Source: an uncultured Chloroflexia bacterium
GTDB taxonomy: Bacteria; Chloroflexota; Limnocylindria; Limnocylindrales; CSP1-4
Assembly (NCBI GenBank): GCA_963743815.1
Contig: CAVURB010000002.1
Coordinates: forward strand, 9,008-73,007
DNA length: 64,000 nucleotides
Reading direction: 5' to 3'
Part shown: piece after piece, positions 1-30,605 of the stretch
Position numbering within the stretch: position 1 is the stretch's first letter
How the letters are laid out: each line of letters starts with the position of its first letter
Made by a program: the position numbers and the translations under genes
Notes under the pieces: generated by a model
The model's input: the letters and a program-made list of their open reading frames with translations, nothing else
The model's database searches: none
What the model was told of the DNA's origin: nothing

Positions 1-815
1 GGCCTTGTTCTTGTGCTGGCTCTTCTCGTCCTGGATCTCGACCACGAGGCCCGGACGGCAGGTGGGTGATGCGCACCGCCGAATCGGTCGTGTTGACCGA
101 CTGACCGCCGGGGCCGGACGAGCGCTTGATATCGATGCGGATGTCCCGCTCTTCGTCGATCTCGATCTCGACCTCGTCGGCCTCGGGCATGACGACGACG
201 GTCGCGGTGGACGTGTGGATGCGTCCGCTCGATTCCGTCGCCGGGATGCGCTGGACGCGATGGACGCCGCCCTCGAACTTGAGCCGGCTGTACGCGCCGT
301 CGCCGCGGACCTGGACGATGGCCTCCTTGATGCCGTCGATCCCGGTCTCGTTGAGGCTCATCACCTCGGTCGCGTAGCGATGCCCGGCGGCATAGCGCAG
401 GTACAGGCGCAGGAGTTCCGCGGCGAACAGGGCCGCCTCCTCGCCGCCGGCGCCGGCACGGATCTCGAGGATCACGTCGCGGTCGTCGTTGGGGTCGCGC
501 GGCAGGAGGAGCACCTTCAGGTCCTCGATGAGGCGCGCCTCGTCGGCCTCCAGGCGCGCGATCTCATCGCGGGCCATCGCGCCCATCTCGTCGTCGCGCG
601 TCGGCCGCATCGCGCAGCTCGCGGGCGCCAGCCAGCTCGGCTCGCGTGGCCTCCAGTCGCCGGAACGCCTCGACGGTGGGCTCGAGGCGGGCGAGCTCCT
701 TGCCGAGCCGGCGGATCTCGCTCGGGTCGGCCGAGACCTCGGGTCGGGACAGTTCGGCCTGGACGTCGTCGTATTGCGCGGCGATCTCGGCGAGCTTGGC
801 GTCGAGGTCGCTCAT
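1..815 (-). CDS. prfA: Peptide chain release factor 1; C-terminal end lies outside the window; apparent frameshift near 600
   Basis: [18 protein letters not shown] start; [10 protein letters not shown] (PxT motif) and [19 protein letters not shown] (GGQ motif) read on the minus strand. Confidence 0.95.
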
Positions 816-22400: not shown

Positions 22401-22482
22401 GCGGGATCCGGCCGCGCGGGATCCGGCCGCGCGGGATCCGGCCGCGTGCGCGGGATCCGTCCCGTTGCGGGATCTGGCCGCC
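22401..22482. repeat. 15-bp tandem repeat GCGGGATCCGGCCGC: three perfect and two degenerate copies
   Basis: Perfect copies at 22401, 22416 and 22431; degenerate copies near 22450 and 22467. Confidence 0.9.
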
Positions 22483-22592
22483 AGGGACTCCGGACGATGT
22501 CGGGTGGCGCGAACACGACCTTCCCGTCCGCGCGGCTGACGCCCGCCCACGAATCGGGGTCCGAGGCGGTCTCGCCCTATACTCTCCGTCCC

Positions 22593-25610
<3,018 letters not shown>

Positions 25611-25624
25611 GCGGTCGTCCATCG

Positions 25625-26217
25625 GTGGGTCTGGTCGTCCGTTTCGTCCTCGTCGCGGGGGTCGTGGCCGTCGGGGTCGCGGGGTACGCGACGTACCGGA
25701 TCTGGGACCAGGGCGGACGGACGAGCGGCCATCCGTCGATGCGATCGTCGTCATGGGTGCCGCGCAGTACGACGGCCGGCCGTCTCCCGTGTTCGCGGCG
25801 CGCCTCGACCACGCGGTCGAGCTGTTCCATGCGGGGCTTGCCCCCAGGCTCATCGTGACGGGCGGCAAGGCGGAAGGTGATCGGACGACCGAGGCCGCCA
25901 GCGCTCGCGCCTATGCCATCGCGCACGACGTCCCTGAGGACGCGATCCTCCTCGAGGACGAGAGTCGGACGACGCTCGAGTCGATCCGTGGGGTCGCCGC
26001 TCTCATGGACGGCCACGACCTCTCGACGGCGATCTTCGTCTCCGACCCGACCCACATGCTGCGCGTCCTGCGGATGGCGTCCGACGCGGGGATCACGGGC
26101 TATGGGTCGCCGACGACGACGAGCCCGATCGAGCGGGATGCCGTCGCTCGCGTGGATGCGCTGGTCCACGAACTGGGCGCGCTGGCCGTGTATTTCCTGT
26201 CCGGCCAGGCTCCCTGA
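25625..26217 (+). CDS. YdcF/DUF218 (ElyC/SanA-like) envelope protein; frameshift near 25720
   Basis: N-terminal TM; DAIVVMGAA, ARLDHAVEL, IVTGG, EDESRTTLES, SDPTHMLR. Confidence 0.88.
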
Positions 26218-26260
26218 GGGCGATCGAGCGTCCCGAGGAACCGCGATCTGGATTTCCCTC

Positions 26261-26289
26261 TTGGCGGTGGGAGATTGGCCGCCTATACT
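26261..26289 (+). promoter_or_regulatory. Sigma70-type promoter upstream of the Cys-rich ORF and prfB
   Basis: TTGGCG-N17-TATACT. Confidence 0.6.
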
Positions 26290-26385
26290 GTGCCAAACCT
26301 ACCGCCACGGGCCGCCCGAGTACCCACGGCAGGTCGAGCTCCCAGCCCAGTCGCCCGTGCCCAGCGCCAACTAGTGAGGGAGTCC

Positions 26386-26610
26386 GTGAAGCAGGCCGAG
26401 GACGCCGCGTTCGTCGATCTGATCGCATGCGAGCGCGACTGTCGCTCCTGCAGTTATGCCGCCGCATTGGACTGCGATGGCAATTGCGGCGTTTGTCCGC
26501 ACAACGGTTACTGTCCCTGCGTGAACCCCGTCGTCGCGCGGAGCAAGACAGCACTGCGGCTCATCGAGCTGCGCCCGCTCCTGCTCCAGGATCTCCAGGT
26601 CCGGAACTAG
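26386..26610 (+). CDS. 74-aa Cys-rich protein with two CX3CX2C motifs and a CXC
   Basis: GAGGGA SD before GTG; CERDCRSC...CDGNCGVC...CPC; TAG abuts the prfB GTG. Confidence 0.7.
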   Translation: MKQAEDAAFVDLIACERDCRSCSYAAALDCDGNCGVCPHNGYCPCVNPVVARSKTALRLIELRPLLLQDLQVRN

Positions 26611-27742
26611 GTGGACGCATCCACCATCCGCGACCTGGCCGAACGGATCCGGTCGACCTCGGGGCGGCTTTGACCTCGAGGTCAAGGGAGAGCGCGTCGC
26701 CCAGCTCGAGGCGCTGACCCAGGAGCCCGGGTTCTGGGATGACCAGCGCGGTGCCCAGAAGGTGCTGCGCGAGGCCGATGGGCTGCGGTCCGAGATCGAA
26801 ACCTGGACCGACCTGCTGACCCGCACCGCCGACCTCGAAGCGGCCGTCGAGCTTCTCGACGAGACCGACGATGCCGGCCTCCAGGCCGAGCTCGAGCGCG
26901 ACGCCGCGGGGCTCGAGAAGGATTTCTCCCTCGAGCGGACGGCCCTGCTGTTCTCCGGCGAGCACGACGAGCGGGCGGCCATCCTCACGATCAGCGCCGG
27001 CGCGGGCGGGACCGAAGCAACCGACTGGGCCGAGATGCTCCTGCGGATGTACCTGCGCTGGGCCGAACGCCATCGGTTCCCGACGGAGATCATCGACCAG
27101 CAGGAAGGCGAGCAGGCGGGCCTCAAGAGCGTGACCGTCGAGGTGGGCGGTCGGCGCGCGTACGGATGGCTGCGGGCGGAGCGCGGGGTCCATCGGCTGG
27201 TACGGATCAGCCCGTTCGATTCGCAGAAGCGGCGCCAGACCACGTTCGCCCTCGTCGAGGTGCTCCCCGAGGTGGACGACGACATCGAGATCGAACTCGA
27301 CTGGGACGTCATCCGGGTGGACACCTACCGGGCGCAGGGCGCCGGTGGCCAGCACGTCAACAAGACCGATTCCGCCGTCCGACTCACCCACGGACCCACC
27401 GGTCTCGTCGTCCAGAGCCAGAACGAGCGCTCACAGACGCAGAACAAGGAGAACGCCATCAAGGTCCTCAAGGCGCGGCTCCTGGAGCGGGCGCTCGAGG
27501 AGAAGGAGGCGGAGATGCGCGCGCTCAAGGGCGAGCACGTCGAGGCCGGCTGGGGCAACCAGATCCGGAGTTACGTCCTGCATCCCTACCAGATGGTGAA
27601 GGACCTTCGGACGGGCTACGAGACCGGCAACACCAGCGCCGTGCTCGATGGGGACCTGGACGCGTTCATGCAGGCGGAACTCGAACGACTCGCGACCGGC
27701 GGCGCGCTGCGCGGCGAGCACGCCGAGACACCCGTCGCGTGA
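26611..27742 (+). CDS. prfB: Peptide chain release factor 2 with programmed +1 frameshift at CTT-TGA-C (26668-26674)
   Basis: 20-codon first frame ends GGG CGG CTT TGA C; +1 frame gives DLEVK..FWDD, RISPFD (SPF motif) and GAGGQHVN. Confidence 0.97.
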
Positions 27743-28740
27743 CCGTCCCGACCGGCGCCGACGTGGTCCCGGGTCGCGTCACCGCCACCGCAACCTATCG
27801 ACCTGCGCGACCGGACGAGCTCGCCCCCTGTGCCGATATCTGGCGCGCGAGCATCAACGACTACATCCTGCCGCTGGGCCAGATGGAGATCCCGCCCGAG
27901 CAGGCCCCGCTGCTGCGCCTCTACGCGCACCTCCAGGCGACCGATCCGGACCGATTCGTGGTGGCGGTCGTGCCCGACGCGGGCGCGGACGGCGCCGAGC
28001 GGATCGTGGGGTTCGCCGCCGCCGTCATGCGCGAGCGGCTCTGGTTCCTCTCGATGTGCTTCGTCCTGCCGGAGATGCAGGGGGCCGGCATCGGTCGTGC
28101 GCTCCTCGCCCAGGTCGCTCCGCCTGCGGCCCCCGAGATCGTCCGCTCCACGGCGACCGACAGCGCACAACCGATCTCGAACGCGCTCTACGCCTCGCTC
28201 GGGATCGTCCCGAGGCTCCCGCTGCTCAACCTCATCGGCCATCCGATGCACCCGGACGCCTTCGGCCCCTTGCCGTCCGGGATCCGACCCGTGTCATTCG
28301 AGGAACGCGCCGGCGCCGGCGGTGGCGGTGGTAGTGGACACGCCGAGCTGGCGGCGACCGTTGACGCCCTCGACCGGGAACTGCTGGGTGTCGCGCACCC
28401 GCTCGACCATCGGTACCTGCGCCAGGAGGGCCGGCGCGGCTGGCTCTACCTCGGTCCCGACGGCACCGCGGTCGGGTACGGCTATGCGACCGAAGCGGGT
28501 CGCGTCGGTCCGGTGGCCGCGCTCGACGCGGACCTGCTCGCCCCCATCCTGGGGCACCTCACGGACGTCGTGACCCCGCGCGGCGCGTTCGCGATGTGGC
28601 TCCCCGGATCTGCCGATCGAGCCGTCGTGGCGGCCTTGGCAGCCGGCTTCCGGCTGGACCAGTTCCCCATCCTGCTCTGCTGGGATCGGCCGTTCGCCGA
28701 CCTGACGCGCTATCTGCCCATCTCACCCGGACTGCTCTAG
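27739..28740 (+). CDS. GNAT family N-acetyltransferase (tandem GNAT)
   Basis: YRPARPDEL, FVLPEMQGAGIGRALL, LYASLG, GRVGPVAA. Confidence 0.85.
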   Translation: MTVPTGADVVPGRVTATATYRPARPDELAPCADIWRASINDYILPLGQMEIPPEQAPLLRLYAHLQATDPDRFVVAVVPDAGADGAERIVGFAAAVMRERLWFLSMCFVLPEMQGAGIGRALLAQVAPPAAPEIVRSTATDSAQPISNALYASLGIVPRLPLLNLIGHPMHPDAFGPLPSGIRPVSFEERAGAGGGGGSGHAELAATVDALDRELLGVAHPLDHRYLRQEGRRGWLYLGPDGTAVGYGYATEAGRVGPVAALDADLLAPILGHLTDVVTPRGAFAMWLPGSADRAVVAALAAGFRLDQFPILLCWDRPFADLTRYLPISPGLL

Positions 28741-28830: not shown

Positions 28831-29701
28831 GTGGCTCCCCCAGCCGTGCCCGCGGACGGAGCTCGAACGACCGGAGTCGGTGGCGACCGTCGTCGCCTCG
28901 ATGACTCCCCCGCGGAGTGGCCAGTGACCATCGCCCCCGCGCCGTCGCCGGCGCGCTCCCTTCGACGCCGCCTCCTGGATCGCGGTCGCGACCAGGCCGG
29001 GCAGGAACGCGCCGTCCTCGTGCTGCATGACGTCACCAAGCAGTACCCCAACGGGAAGATCGCACTGCGCGACGTGGACCTGGTCATCCCCGAGGGCGAC
29101 TTCGTGTTCCTCGTCGGGCCGTCCGGTGCCGGCAAGTCCACGCTCATCAAGCTGCTCATCCGCGACGAGATCGCGACACGCGGCGACGTCGTGCTGGACG
29201 GCCAGGACCTGGCCCGGCTACCCCGCCGCCAGGTCCCGCGGATGCGCCGCAAGATCGGGATCATCTTCCAGGACTTCAAGCTGTTGCCGACCAAGACCGT
29301 ATGGGAGAACGTGGCGTTCGCCCTGGAGGTGACCGGTCATCCGCGCCGCCAGATCCGTCCCGCGGTCGATCGGGTGCTCGCGATCGTCGGCCTCACGGCG
29401 CAGGCGAAGCAGATCCCCTCGCAGCTTTCGGGCGGCGAGCAGCAGCGGACCGCCATCGCCCGGGCGCTCGTCCACGATCCGCGGCTGATCATCGCGGACG
29501 AACCGACCGGGCAACCTGGATCCGCTCATCAGCTGGGAGATCCTGCAGCTGCTGCTGCGCATCAACGAGCTGGGCGTCACGGTCCTGATGGCGACCCACA
29601 ACGCGGATGTCGTGACCGCCCTGCGCCGGCGCGTGGTCGCCCTCGAGGAGGGCCGGATCATCCGCGACGAGGTCGGTGGCGCCTACCACCGCGAGGATTG
29701 A
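28831..29701 (+). CDS. ftsE: Cell-division ABC ATPase FtsE; N-terminal extension or uncertain start; frameshift near 29510
   Basis: [35 protein letters not shown]; precedes ftsX. Confidence 0.93.
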
Positions 29702-29705
29702 CGCG

Positions 29706-30591
29706 GTGATCACGTTCGTCGTCTTCAGCATCCGGCGGGCCTGGCAGGGCTTCTGGCGCAACGCGGTCATGAGCCTCGCCGCGACCGCGACGATGGTCCT
29801 GATGCTCCTCCTGCTCGCCGGGTTCTGGATCATCCAGACCGGACTGCTGGCCGGCCTGGAGTTCACGGAGCAGAAGGTCGAGGTCGTCGCGTACCTGCAG
29901 CCCAACGCGACCGAGAGTCAGGTCGAAGCGCTCCAGCGCGATCTCGAGGCCATGCCCGAGGTCCAGGAGGTGGTCTACGTCACGCGGGACGACGCGCTCG
30001 TGCGCTTCCGCGAATCGATGGAGGCGCAAGGTCGTGAGGACCTCACCCAGTACCTCGAGAGCAACCCGCTCTTCGCCAGCCTCGAGGTCAAGTTCGTCGA
30101 ACCGACCGGGATCGCGGTGGTCAGCGACGTCCTGCAGGCGGACGGGGCGGTCCGCAACGTCATCAACATCGAGGACCTCGTGGACCGGGTGCTCACCGTC
30201 ACGAACGTCCTGCGGACCGCCGGCACGGTCCTGTTGATCATCGTCGGGGTCATCTGCCCTGTTCATCATCGTCAACACGATCCGCCTCGCCGTCTTCGCG
30301 CGAGCCGAGGAGATCGAGATCATGCGGCTCGTCGGCGCGTCCGACGCGTTCATCCGTTGGCCGTTCGTGTTCGAGGGCGCCTTCGTCGGCTTCCTGGGTG
30401 CCGCGATCACGCTGGCCGTGCTGGCCGCCGCGGCAGAGCCGCTGAGCGGCTTCATGGTCGAGTTCTTCCGGATCCTCCCGCTCGAGGTCGGGTCGCTCAC
30501 GCGTGACCTCGTCGCGCTGGTGATGGGCGCCGGGGTGGGGCTCGGGATCGTCGGTTCCTGGGTATCGGTCCGGACCTACCTGATCCGCTAG
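29706..30591 (+). CDS. ftsX: Cell-division permease FtsX; frameshift near 30255
   Basis: FWRNAVMS, EEIEIMRLVGASDAFIRWPFVFEG. Confidence 0.93.
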
Positions 30592-30605
30592 CGAGCGGCG
30601 ATCGC

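Follow-up and report, generated by a model that had tools for sequence, protein, structure and literature searches.

The stretch of DNA analysed here, called the window throughout, comprises 64,000 nucleotides (nt) of a high-G+C metagenome-assembled genome (MAG) of an uncultured Chloroflexota bacterium of the class Limnocylindria (contig CAVURB010000002.1), and all coordinates are positions in the whole window. It carries a short open reading frame (ORF) with eight cysteine codons directly ahead of prfB, the gene for release factor 2 (RF2). We refer to this ORF as the mini-gene or mini-ORF and to its product as the mini-protein. The order of genes along the window is secA (22446-25610), a DUF218 gene (to 26217), the mini-gene, prfB, a GNAT acetyltransferase gene, ftsE, ftsX and ctpB. 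The mini-gene, its signals and its junction with prfB consist of the following features; the clades named in one of the lines are defined below.

26261..26289 (+): sigma-70-like promoter, TTGGCG-N17-TATACT; the sole match in 25500-27500, where shuffled sequences give an expectation of 0.0
26296..26385 (+): 5' untranslated leader of about 90 nt, its start inferred from the -10 box; ends in the Shine-Dalgarno (SD) sequence
26376-26382 (+): SD sequence GAGGGAG, about 90-99% conserved (87 loci)
26386..26610 (+): mini-gene, 74 codons plus stop; GTG start at 26386, TAG stop at 26608-26610
26428..26520 (+): eight-cysteine core, residues 15-45, C-x3-C-x2-C-x7-C-x3-C-x2-C-x5-C-x-C
26521..26607 (+): C-terminal tail of the mini-protein, 29 residues, net charge +3; near-invariant in clade A, different in clades B and C
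26526..26536 (+): left arm of a predicted RNA helix (RNAalifold), CCCCG..GUCG, codons 47-51; no synonymous variation in 85-90 sequences
26608..26613 (+): stop/start junction TAG/GTG, the prfB GTG at 26611 following the mini-ORF TAG without a spacer
26611..26673 (+): prfB frame-0 leader, VDASTIRDLAERIRSTSGRL, then TGA
26654..26664 (+): right arm of the predicted helix, CGAC..CGGGG, within the prfB leader; includes an SD-like GGGG 3 nt 5' of CUU
26668..26674 (+): programmed +1 frameshift site of prfB, CTT TGA C, which closes the leader
26672..27742 (+): prfB +1 frame encoding the RF2 body (Pfam PCRF, 2.2e-54; RF-1, 7e-40)

The mini-gene is a genuine protein-coding gene of an undescribed family. 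Its product comprises 74 residues (MKQAEDAAFVDLIACERDCRSCSYAAALDCDGNCGVCPHNGYCPCVNPVVARSKTALRLIELRPLLLQDLQVRN) with cysteines at positions 15, 19, 22, 30, 34, 37, 43 and 45. Nei-Gojobori analysis of 90 sequences gave a mean pS of 0.444 and a mean pN of 0.039 (ratio 0.088), and all eight cysteines are invariant over 90 relatives with TGC and TGT codons interchanging. Amino-acid conservation starts exactly at the mini-gene start codon, and the in-frame translation further 5' is unrelated among genomes. Among 92 loci the start codon is GTG in 74, TTG in 17 and ATG in one, and the mini-protein is 74 residues long in 90 of the 92. When the same 79 genomes are compared, mean pairwise identity amounts to 93.3% for the mini-protein versus 74.4% for RF2. 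A collection of 5.8 billion proteins contains 434 clusters (90% identity) of the mini-protein, the best 120 of which are 89-97% identical, a set of 1.84 billion representatives yielded 61 matches, and more than 212 loci in GTDB species representatives encode it. Pfam and NCBIfam gave no match for the mini-ORF, for a longer 111-residue frame or for any of 48 aligned members. A PDB sequence search with the family profile returned nothing but a chance beta-galactosidase stretch (E 2.5), and an Rfam search of 25000-28000 returned gabT alone, at an E value of 0.29 that lies below the gathering score and represents chance. A first-pass annotation, made from the letters of the window without database searches, had described a 74-residue ORF with this cysteine pattern, proposed it as a real microprotein gene whose pattern and frame should be sought in relatives, and failed to recognise its family. 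All of this holds up in the sequence itself, in the pN/pS ratio and the conservation among 90 relatives, and in the searches of Pfam, NCBIfam, PDB and Rfam.

The mini-gene is a single-copy core gene of the class Limnocylindria. Of the 301 genomes of the class, 272 contain it, as do 147 of the 154 genomes of high quality, and it occurs in 54 of 57 genera. All seven high-quality exceptions belong to a single family, f2, and make up all the high-quality genomes of that family; outside f2 the count is 147 of 147. No second copy was found elsewhere in any genome of the class that was searched, and about 350 genomes of other Chloroflexota classes gave no match to the mini-protein better than E 5e-5. 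Clade A corresponds to family f1 and includes the window locus. Clade B (family f4) encodes proteins of about 100 residues, in which MKQL and about 28 inserted residues precede the cysteine core, and has the gene order secA, ORF, prfB, ftsE, ftsX, ctpB and smpB, with gyrA and prs also seen at one locus (L093). Clade C (families f3 and f5) encodes proteins of 65-66 residues and was found in 32 of 32 genomes. A divergent homologue on a metagenome contig of 52% G+C (L137) is counted as a fourth diverged clade; its RF2 groups with none of f1, f2 and f4 in an RF2 tree whose deep nodes are weak. The eight-cysteine core is common to clades A, B and C and L137, and residues I13, C15, E16, C19, C22, Y24, L28, C30, D31, G32, C34, C37, C43, P44 and C45 are invariant across all of them. 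The tail past the last cysteine is basic and 26-29 residues long in all four clades and has a clade-specific sequence; its net charge of +3 (clades A and B) or +4 (clade C) is modest, with acidic residues interspersed.

The mini-gene possesses its own expression signals and terminates at the start of prfB. The promoter (ATTTCCCTCTTGGCG...TATACT) is 90-99% conserved over 87 related loci, and its clade B counterpart consists of the same CCTCTTGGCG-N17-TAGGAT. The 5' untranslated leader is variable in length and sequence and poorly alignable, and RNAalifold found no consensus structure in it. At 92 of 92 clade A loci, the mini-ORF stop and the prfB start are separated by 0 nt (TAG/GTG, TGA/GTG or TAG/ATG) or overlap by 1 nt (TAGTG or TGATG). 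The prfB TTG start of clade B lies 14 nt within the mini-ORF at 12 of 12 loci. The 30 clade C loci have a spacer of 0-20 nt in any frame, as read off the junction sequences, the prfB start not having been called programmatically for each locus. At L137 the mini-ORF follows an endonuclease V gene, not secA, and still precedes prfB, whose ATG is located 32 nt within the mini-ORF. A leader cistron with its stop near or overlapping the prfB start is found in clades A, B and C, at L137 and in all eight of the eight upstream ORFs (uORFs) of family f2 described below. An SD sequence ahead of prfB is not conserved: codon 73 of the mini-gene is CGG in 60 of 90 sequences and CGC in 21 of 90, and GGA is not fixed. 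The first-pass annotation had assigned to the mini-gene a promoter and an SD of its own, both now seen to be conserved, and had noted that prfB lacks a clear SD, which the alignment bears out. It had also proposed stop/start coupling, with which the junction, kept throughout clade A and present in other forms in three further clades, is consistent.

Termination-reinitiation coupling at abutting or overlapping stop and start codons is known from the E. coli gene pairs trpE-trpD and trpB-trpA. The mini-gene and prfB resemble these pairs in that stop and start abut or overlap (TAGGTG, TAGTG, TGATG, or by 14 or 32 nt), in that prfB has no conserved SD, and in the RNA structure predicted around the junction. 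They differ from the trp cistrons in that the downstream gene already has its own +1 frameshift autoregulation and in that the upstream cistron is a dedicated, hyperconserved eight-cysteine micro-protein with its own promoter. We infer, with good support, a mini-gene/prfB mRNA that is translated by termination-reinitiation. Transcription from the mini-gene promoter would produce an mRNA with the mini-gene as its first cistron and, as no conserved SD precedes prfB, most initiation on prfB would come from ribosomes that reinitiate right after termination on the mini-gene. Such coupling would fix the amount of mini-protein in proportion to prfB initiations.

Two clade C contigs from different samples carry a natural fusion in which the stop is replaced by TGT and the cysteine protein is in frame with the RF2 leader up to CTT TGA C. 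Further apparent fusions were rejected as mis-framed gene calls (P0125 and P0127) or as a spurious repeat match (P0177). In 5 of 19 other Chloroflexota (L149, L152, L154, L163 and L165), the secA stop is found -22 to +8 nt from the prfB start, a sign that translation of secA and prfB may be coupled in several further classes of the phylum. The coupling partner of prfB in these sister groups would be secA, not the mini-gene. Given this proximity, coupling of prfB to an upstream cistron looks ancestral, with the mini-gene having taken the place of secA in Limnocylindria.

The streamlined family f2 has lost the cysteine domain and kept a coupled uORF. Its genomes are 1.0-1.4 Mb in size and belong to the same order as the window's family. 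A uORF of 16-18 codons lies between secA and prfB, and its stop overlaps or abuts the prfB GTG, with junctions GGGTGAGC, TGGTGAGC or TAAccgGTG. Three f2 subgroups encode different uORF peptides (VSSESLVGAAVRLGMGAG, VKQQSPVVALERPSERPW and VKSQYPVAVFVRSSAS), and the peptide is therefore not the conserved element. One subset (L144-L146) has a uORF still recognisable as a remnant, GTG AAG CAG ... CCC GTC GTC GCC (GTGAAGCAG...CCCCGTCGTCGCC), and in another (L139-L143) the uORF GTG is located 1 nt past the secA TAG, so that the cistrons are coupled in a chain. In the RF2 tree, f2 and f1 are sister families (100/99) and f4 branches outside them; the absence of the cysteine domain in f2 therefore represents a secondary loss. 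Because the uORF is kept without this domain, the cis function of a translated ORF that terminates at the prfB start is separable from the cysteine protein and outlives it.

A long-range RNA helix is predicted to connect the mini-ORF with the prfB leader. Most synonymous sites of the mini-ORF vary freely, and codons 47-50 (AAC CCC GTC GTC) are fixed in about 90 sequences. RNAalifold pairs 26526-26536 with 26654-26664, nine base pairs being preserved in every one of 85 sequences. When the sequences are folded individually, 52 of the 85 minimum-energy structures contain the helix, and the mean pair probability is 0.56. Invariant third codon positions make up 6 of 6 inside the helix versus 7 of 86 outside (Fisher 2.4e-6, calculated on the alignment that served to choose the helix), and positions in its 2x2 internal loop do vary. 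The GGGG element is required for frameshifting anyway, a caveat on the invariance of the helix. In f2, the uORF and the prfB leader form one long hairpin with the same CCCCG:CGGGG base, at which two subgroups arrive by different sequences; in L139-L143 the prfB GUG is paired in the apical stem. In f1 and f2 this helix, formed by codons 47-51 and the prfB leader in f1, would enclose the junction in a domain some 130 nt long and make the translation of prfB depend on that of the upstream ORF. Control of downstream cistrons by long-range RNA pairing is known from MS2-type phages. Two other codon pairs of the mini-ORF, 53-54 (AGC AAG, 26544-26549) and 60-61 (ATC GAG, 26563-26568), are almost without synonymous variation in about 90 sequences, for which the long-range helix offers no explanation.

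The known autoregulation of prfB relies on the site CUU UGA C and an upstream SD-like element. Both the frameshift site and the SD-like GGGG are present and conserved at the mini-gene loci. The prfB leader has 20 sense codons ahead of the in-frame TGA at 79 of 79 loci, and the frameshift site is kept by every clade and by family f2, as well as by all 19 of the other Chloroflexota examined. The SD-like element of f1 and f2 is predicted to base-pair with a site in the upstream ORF, 130 nt distant, and we know of no description of such an extra pairing layer for E. coli prfB. The stop codon of the mini-ORF may add a further level of control. It is UAG at 66 of 92 loci of clade A, 9 of 12 of clade B and 22 of 30 of clade C (72-75%), compared with UAG in 21% and UGA in 75% of 729 long coding-like ORFs of the source genome. 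Owing to this enrichment, prfB reinitiation would depend mostly on release factor 1 (RF1), not on RF2, and RF1 dependence would avoid positive feedback on RF2, as a tendency and not as a rule.

The eight invariant cysteines most likely ligate metal. No signal peptide or hydrophobic segment was seen in the mini-protein by eye, without the use of a predictor, and the presumably cytoplasmic location makes metal ligation the most likely function of the cysteines. The CX3CX2C spacing is just a pattern and would be compatible with Fe-S or Zn. The arrangement of the core suggests two pseudo-symmetric sites in which each CX3CX2C triad would take one cysteine of the CPC motif as its fourth ligand, an arrangement that fits a pair of Zn(Cys)4 sites as well as a pair of cubane clusters; the basic tail of 26-29 residues would follow this metal module. 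Radical SAM enzymes carry CX3CX2C in a partial or full TIM-barrel domain of at least about 200 residues; such an enzyme was rejected as a candidate, the mini-protein having 74 residues only, no Pfam match in 48 members and the CX3CX2C spacing alone in common. The sequence pattern of a 2x[4Fe-4S] ferredoxin is likewise absent: the protein has CxxxCxxC twice followed by CPC, not CxxCxxCxxxCP, and shows neither a Fer4 match at E values up to 10 nor a relative in the PDB. The cysteine density fits a metallothionein-like protein, as the first-pass annotation had considered. Bacterial metallothioneins are usually metal-inducible and encoded beside metal-homeostasis genes. There is no family match here, and the gene neighbourhood is one of translation and cell division, not of metal homeostasis. 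That reading, though possible, is not supported and leaves the fixed place ahead of prfB unexplained.

Small cysteine-rich proteins that act by binding a larger partner are known. WhiB-like [4Fe-4S] proteins bind a sigma factor, and Trm112 is a Zn-binding activator of the eRF1 methyltransferase Mtq2 and is linked to release-factor biology. The mini-protein is similarly tiny, strongly conserved and rich in cysteine, but has no Pfam or NCBIfam match to either and a different cysteine spacing. One remote homologue was found, a 321-residue ParB_N protein of another Chloroflexota family (P0273, L147:310-1275 (-)). Its N-terminal 72 residues align with all eight cysteines, and hhalign of the mini-protein family against this N-terminus gave a probability of 96.3% (E 1.9e-9). 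The ParB_N gene (context in L148) adjoins an SSB-like gene, in a series of genes that gave no Pfam matches, including some with 532- and 1406-residue products, and the contig has the appearance of phage or mobile-element DNA. A word-based search with the ParB_N fusion retrieved no protein other than the fusion itself. The presence of the cysteine core on this protein marks it, on alignment evidence, as an autonomous module attachable to other proteins.

On balance, we favour the reading in which the mini-gene opens a dedicated mRNA of two genes, feeds prfB by termination-reinitiation and encodes a two-site metal module that probably works with RF2 or in termination. The last step, a cytoplasmic product with two metal sites acting in trans with RF2 or the terminating ribosome, is one that we infer with moderate support from the linkage to prfB, the fusion and the extreme conservation. 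The mini-protein might be an accessory subunit or a metal- or redox-sensitive modulator, for example, of RF2 or the terminating ribosome. Our literature search found nothing on a cysteine-rich ORF upstream of prfB or on Limnocylindria release factors. A number of observations weigh against the favoured reading. No RF2 residues track the presence or absence of the mini-protein, with no more than 8 scattered changes in f2, and f2 is viable without the cysteine domain, so the domain is dispensable for RF2 function as such. From its occurrence on the ParB_N protein, the core appears to be a general module that is not intrinsically RF2-specific. In-frame fusion to the RF2 leader is rare and may be just tolerated. 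AlphaFold2 with a 48-row alignment yielded a mean pLDDT of 52.9 and a pTM of 0.30, with 60-67 for the core and below 50 for the tail, and the model was not used. The long-range helix was chosen on the same alignment as the test of its invariance and has no covariation, since both arms are invariant, and an equivalent helix was sought in clades B and C and not found. Lastly, the f2 uORFs are mostly terminated by UGA, which weakens the idea of RF1 gating.

Other explanations can be set against the same evidence. The mini-protein could have a general cellular role outside termination, as a small Zn or Fe-S redox protein, a metal-buffering protein or a mini-ferredoxin that was recruited as the coupling cistron and is linked to prfB purely in cis, a possible alternative that we hold to be improbable. 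It would agree with the f2 uORF, which separates the cis role from the cysteine domain, with the lack of an RF2 signature following the presence of the mini-protein and with the module on the unrelated ParB_N protein, and an overlapping stop and start would make the gene order hard to break. It accounts less well for an adjacency that outlasted four junction rebuilds and a changed upstream neighbour, for the RF2 fusion in one lineage, for the absence of a second copy in any genome and for conservation that exceeds that of RF2. A further candidate role, quite unlikely in our estimate, is that of an RF2-dependent alternative ribosome-rescue factor by analogy to ArfA, BrfA and ArfT, whose basic tail would probe the empty mRNA channel and whose cysteine module would bring RF2 to non-stop complexes. 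These three proteins, from E. coli, B. subtilis and Francisella, respectively, are small release factor-dependent rescue factors without sequence homology to one another (PMC6881298), and this mutual lack of homology favours the idea. They share with the mini-protein a length of about 55-75 residues, a narrow, lineage-restricted taxonomic range and a basic C-terminal tail, which in the mini-protein is modestly charged (+3 to +4 per clade), and a genetic tie to RF2 exists, here by gene linkage only. Moreover, 60 high-quality Limnocylindria genomes contain exactly two genes with an RF-1 domain each (RF1 and RF2) and no ArfB, which leaves room for an RF2-dependent rescue factor, and smpB is found within the same gene cluster in clade B. 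The mini-protein nevertheless has no sequence similarity to these factors and possesses a cysteine cluster that ArfA and BrfA lack, and the mini-gene, unlike arfA and brfA, sits ahead of prfB. The regulatory hallmark of ArfA and BrfA is synthesis from a non-stop mRNA, which arises by cleavage or termination within the ORF, together with repression through trans-translation (PMC6881298); an internal terminator or an RNase III site would create such an mRNA. The mini-gene departs from this pattern, as no terminator-like site was found inside the mini-ORF, the conserved stop serves the prfB start and the mRNA must run into prfB. Family f2, in addition, is without both the mini-protein and ArfB. 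With aragorn, tmRNA was not found in the assembly, which is 72% complete and hence uninformative on this point.

A chiefly cis-acting sensor appears very unlikely. At the stop codon the tail would fill the exit tunnel with the cysteine module just emerged, and metal-dependent folding or pausing on the tail would set prfB reinitiation. The distance from the last cysteine to the stop, 26-29 residues in four clades despite differing tails, would fit such a device, as would the near-invariance of the tail within clades and the strictly kept junction. However, strong purifying selection extends over the entire 74-residue protein, N-terminus included, as would rather be expected of a folded product acting in trans. 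The module also serves as a domain of another protein, the sequence has no known arrest motif, and there is no obvious reason for RF2 supply to follow metal status. The first-pass annotation had also raised a precursor of a cysteine-rich ribosomally synthesised and post-translationally modified peptide (RiPP), here SCIFF- or ranthipeptide-like with its maturase elsewhere, which we consider highly improbable. SCIFF and ranthipeptide precursors have six cysteines in about 45 residues, and SCIFF is always adjacent to its radical-SAM maturase. The mini-protein is likewise short, cysteine-dense and highly conserved and has no family assignment, but its neighbours are all housekeeping genes (secA, DUF218, prfB, GNAT, ftsE, ftsX and ctpB; gyrA, prs and smpB at L093) with no maturase among them, co-occurrence with a remote maturase not having been searched. 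A single-copy core gene with 93% identity across the family also contrasts with RiPP cores, which are usually variable; moreover, the peptide has no leader/core architecture and a fixed translational junction with prfB, and its module doubles as the N-terminal domain of the 321-residue ParB_N protein. We give practically no credence to the explanation that the mini-ORF is no gene and that a conserved RNA leader of prfB is overlaid by a GC-driven shadow frame. High G+C content and many spurious ORFs do characterise the genome, and RNA-level constraint is present in codons 47-51, but this explanation is refuted by a pS of 0.44 versus a pN of 0.04, with third positions free at nearly all codons and amino acids fixed.

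The supply of RF2 is among the best-studied bacterial autoregulatory circuits, and to our knowledge the textbook picture of RF2 includes neither a dedicated protein partner nor a leader cistron. A whole class of abundant uncultured soil bacteria carries a protein more conserved than RF2 ahead of prfB, at a junction that was rebuilt in four ways. If the mini-protein binds RF2 or the ribosome, it would add a new accessory with a metal cofactor to termination or rescue; otherwise, the locus would be a clear natural case of a leader cistron replacing secA in prfB coupling. Either way, an unannotated protein family and an eight-cysteine module are defined. In its most far-reaching form, the proposal is that RF2 shares its mRNA with a dedicated partner, an eight-cysteine metal-cluster protein that is fused to RF2 in one lineage. 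This would tie stop recognition, RF2-dependent rescue or RF2 synthesis to the metal or redox state, with a UAG reinitiation gate read mostly by RF1 and a long-range RNA lock placed atop the frameshift. Taken as a whole, we regard this form as unlikely.

RF2 itself shows two class-specific positions near the SPF motif. I179 and Q185 of the +1-frame product (RISPFDSQKRRQT; window about 27206-27226) are conserved class-wide and rare in 19 other Chloroflexota, and both are retained in f2 too. Upstream of the mini-gene, one further feature lies between secA and the promoter.

25279..26217 (+): DUF218 gene (Pfam DUF218, 4.7e-29), true start uncertain

The DUF218 gene is missing at the corresponding position in clade B. 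Downstream of prfB, the GNAT acetyltransferase gene (window 27790-28740) separates prfB from ftsE in family f1, and in clade B ftsE follows prfB directly. The reading frame of ftsE (window 29440-29720) switches mid-gene, the sequence past ADEPTG resuming in another frame, and ftsX (window 30200-30600) shows a frame change near 30250. Both are probably indel errors of the MAG assembly, or else pseudogenes. At the edge of the window, prfA, the RF1 gene (window 1-175 (-), genome C2:8849-9182), has its RF-1 domain matched as two overlapping pieces in different frames, another apparent frame break of the assembly.

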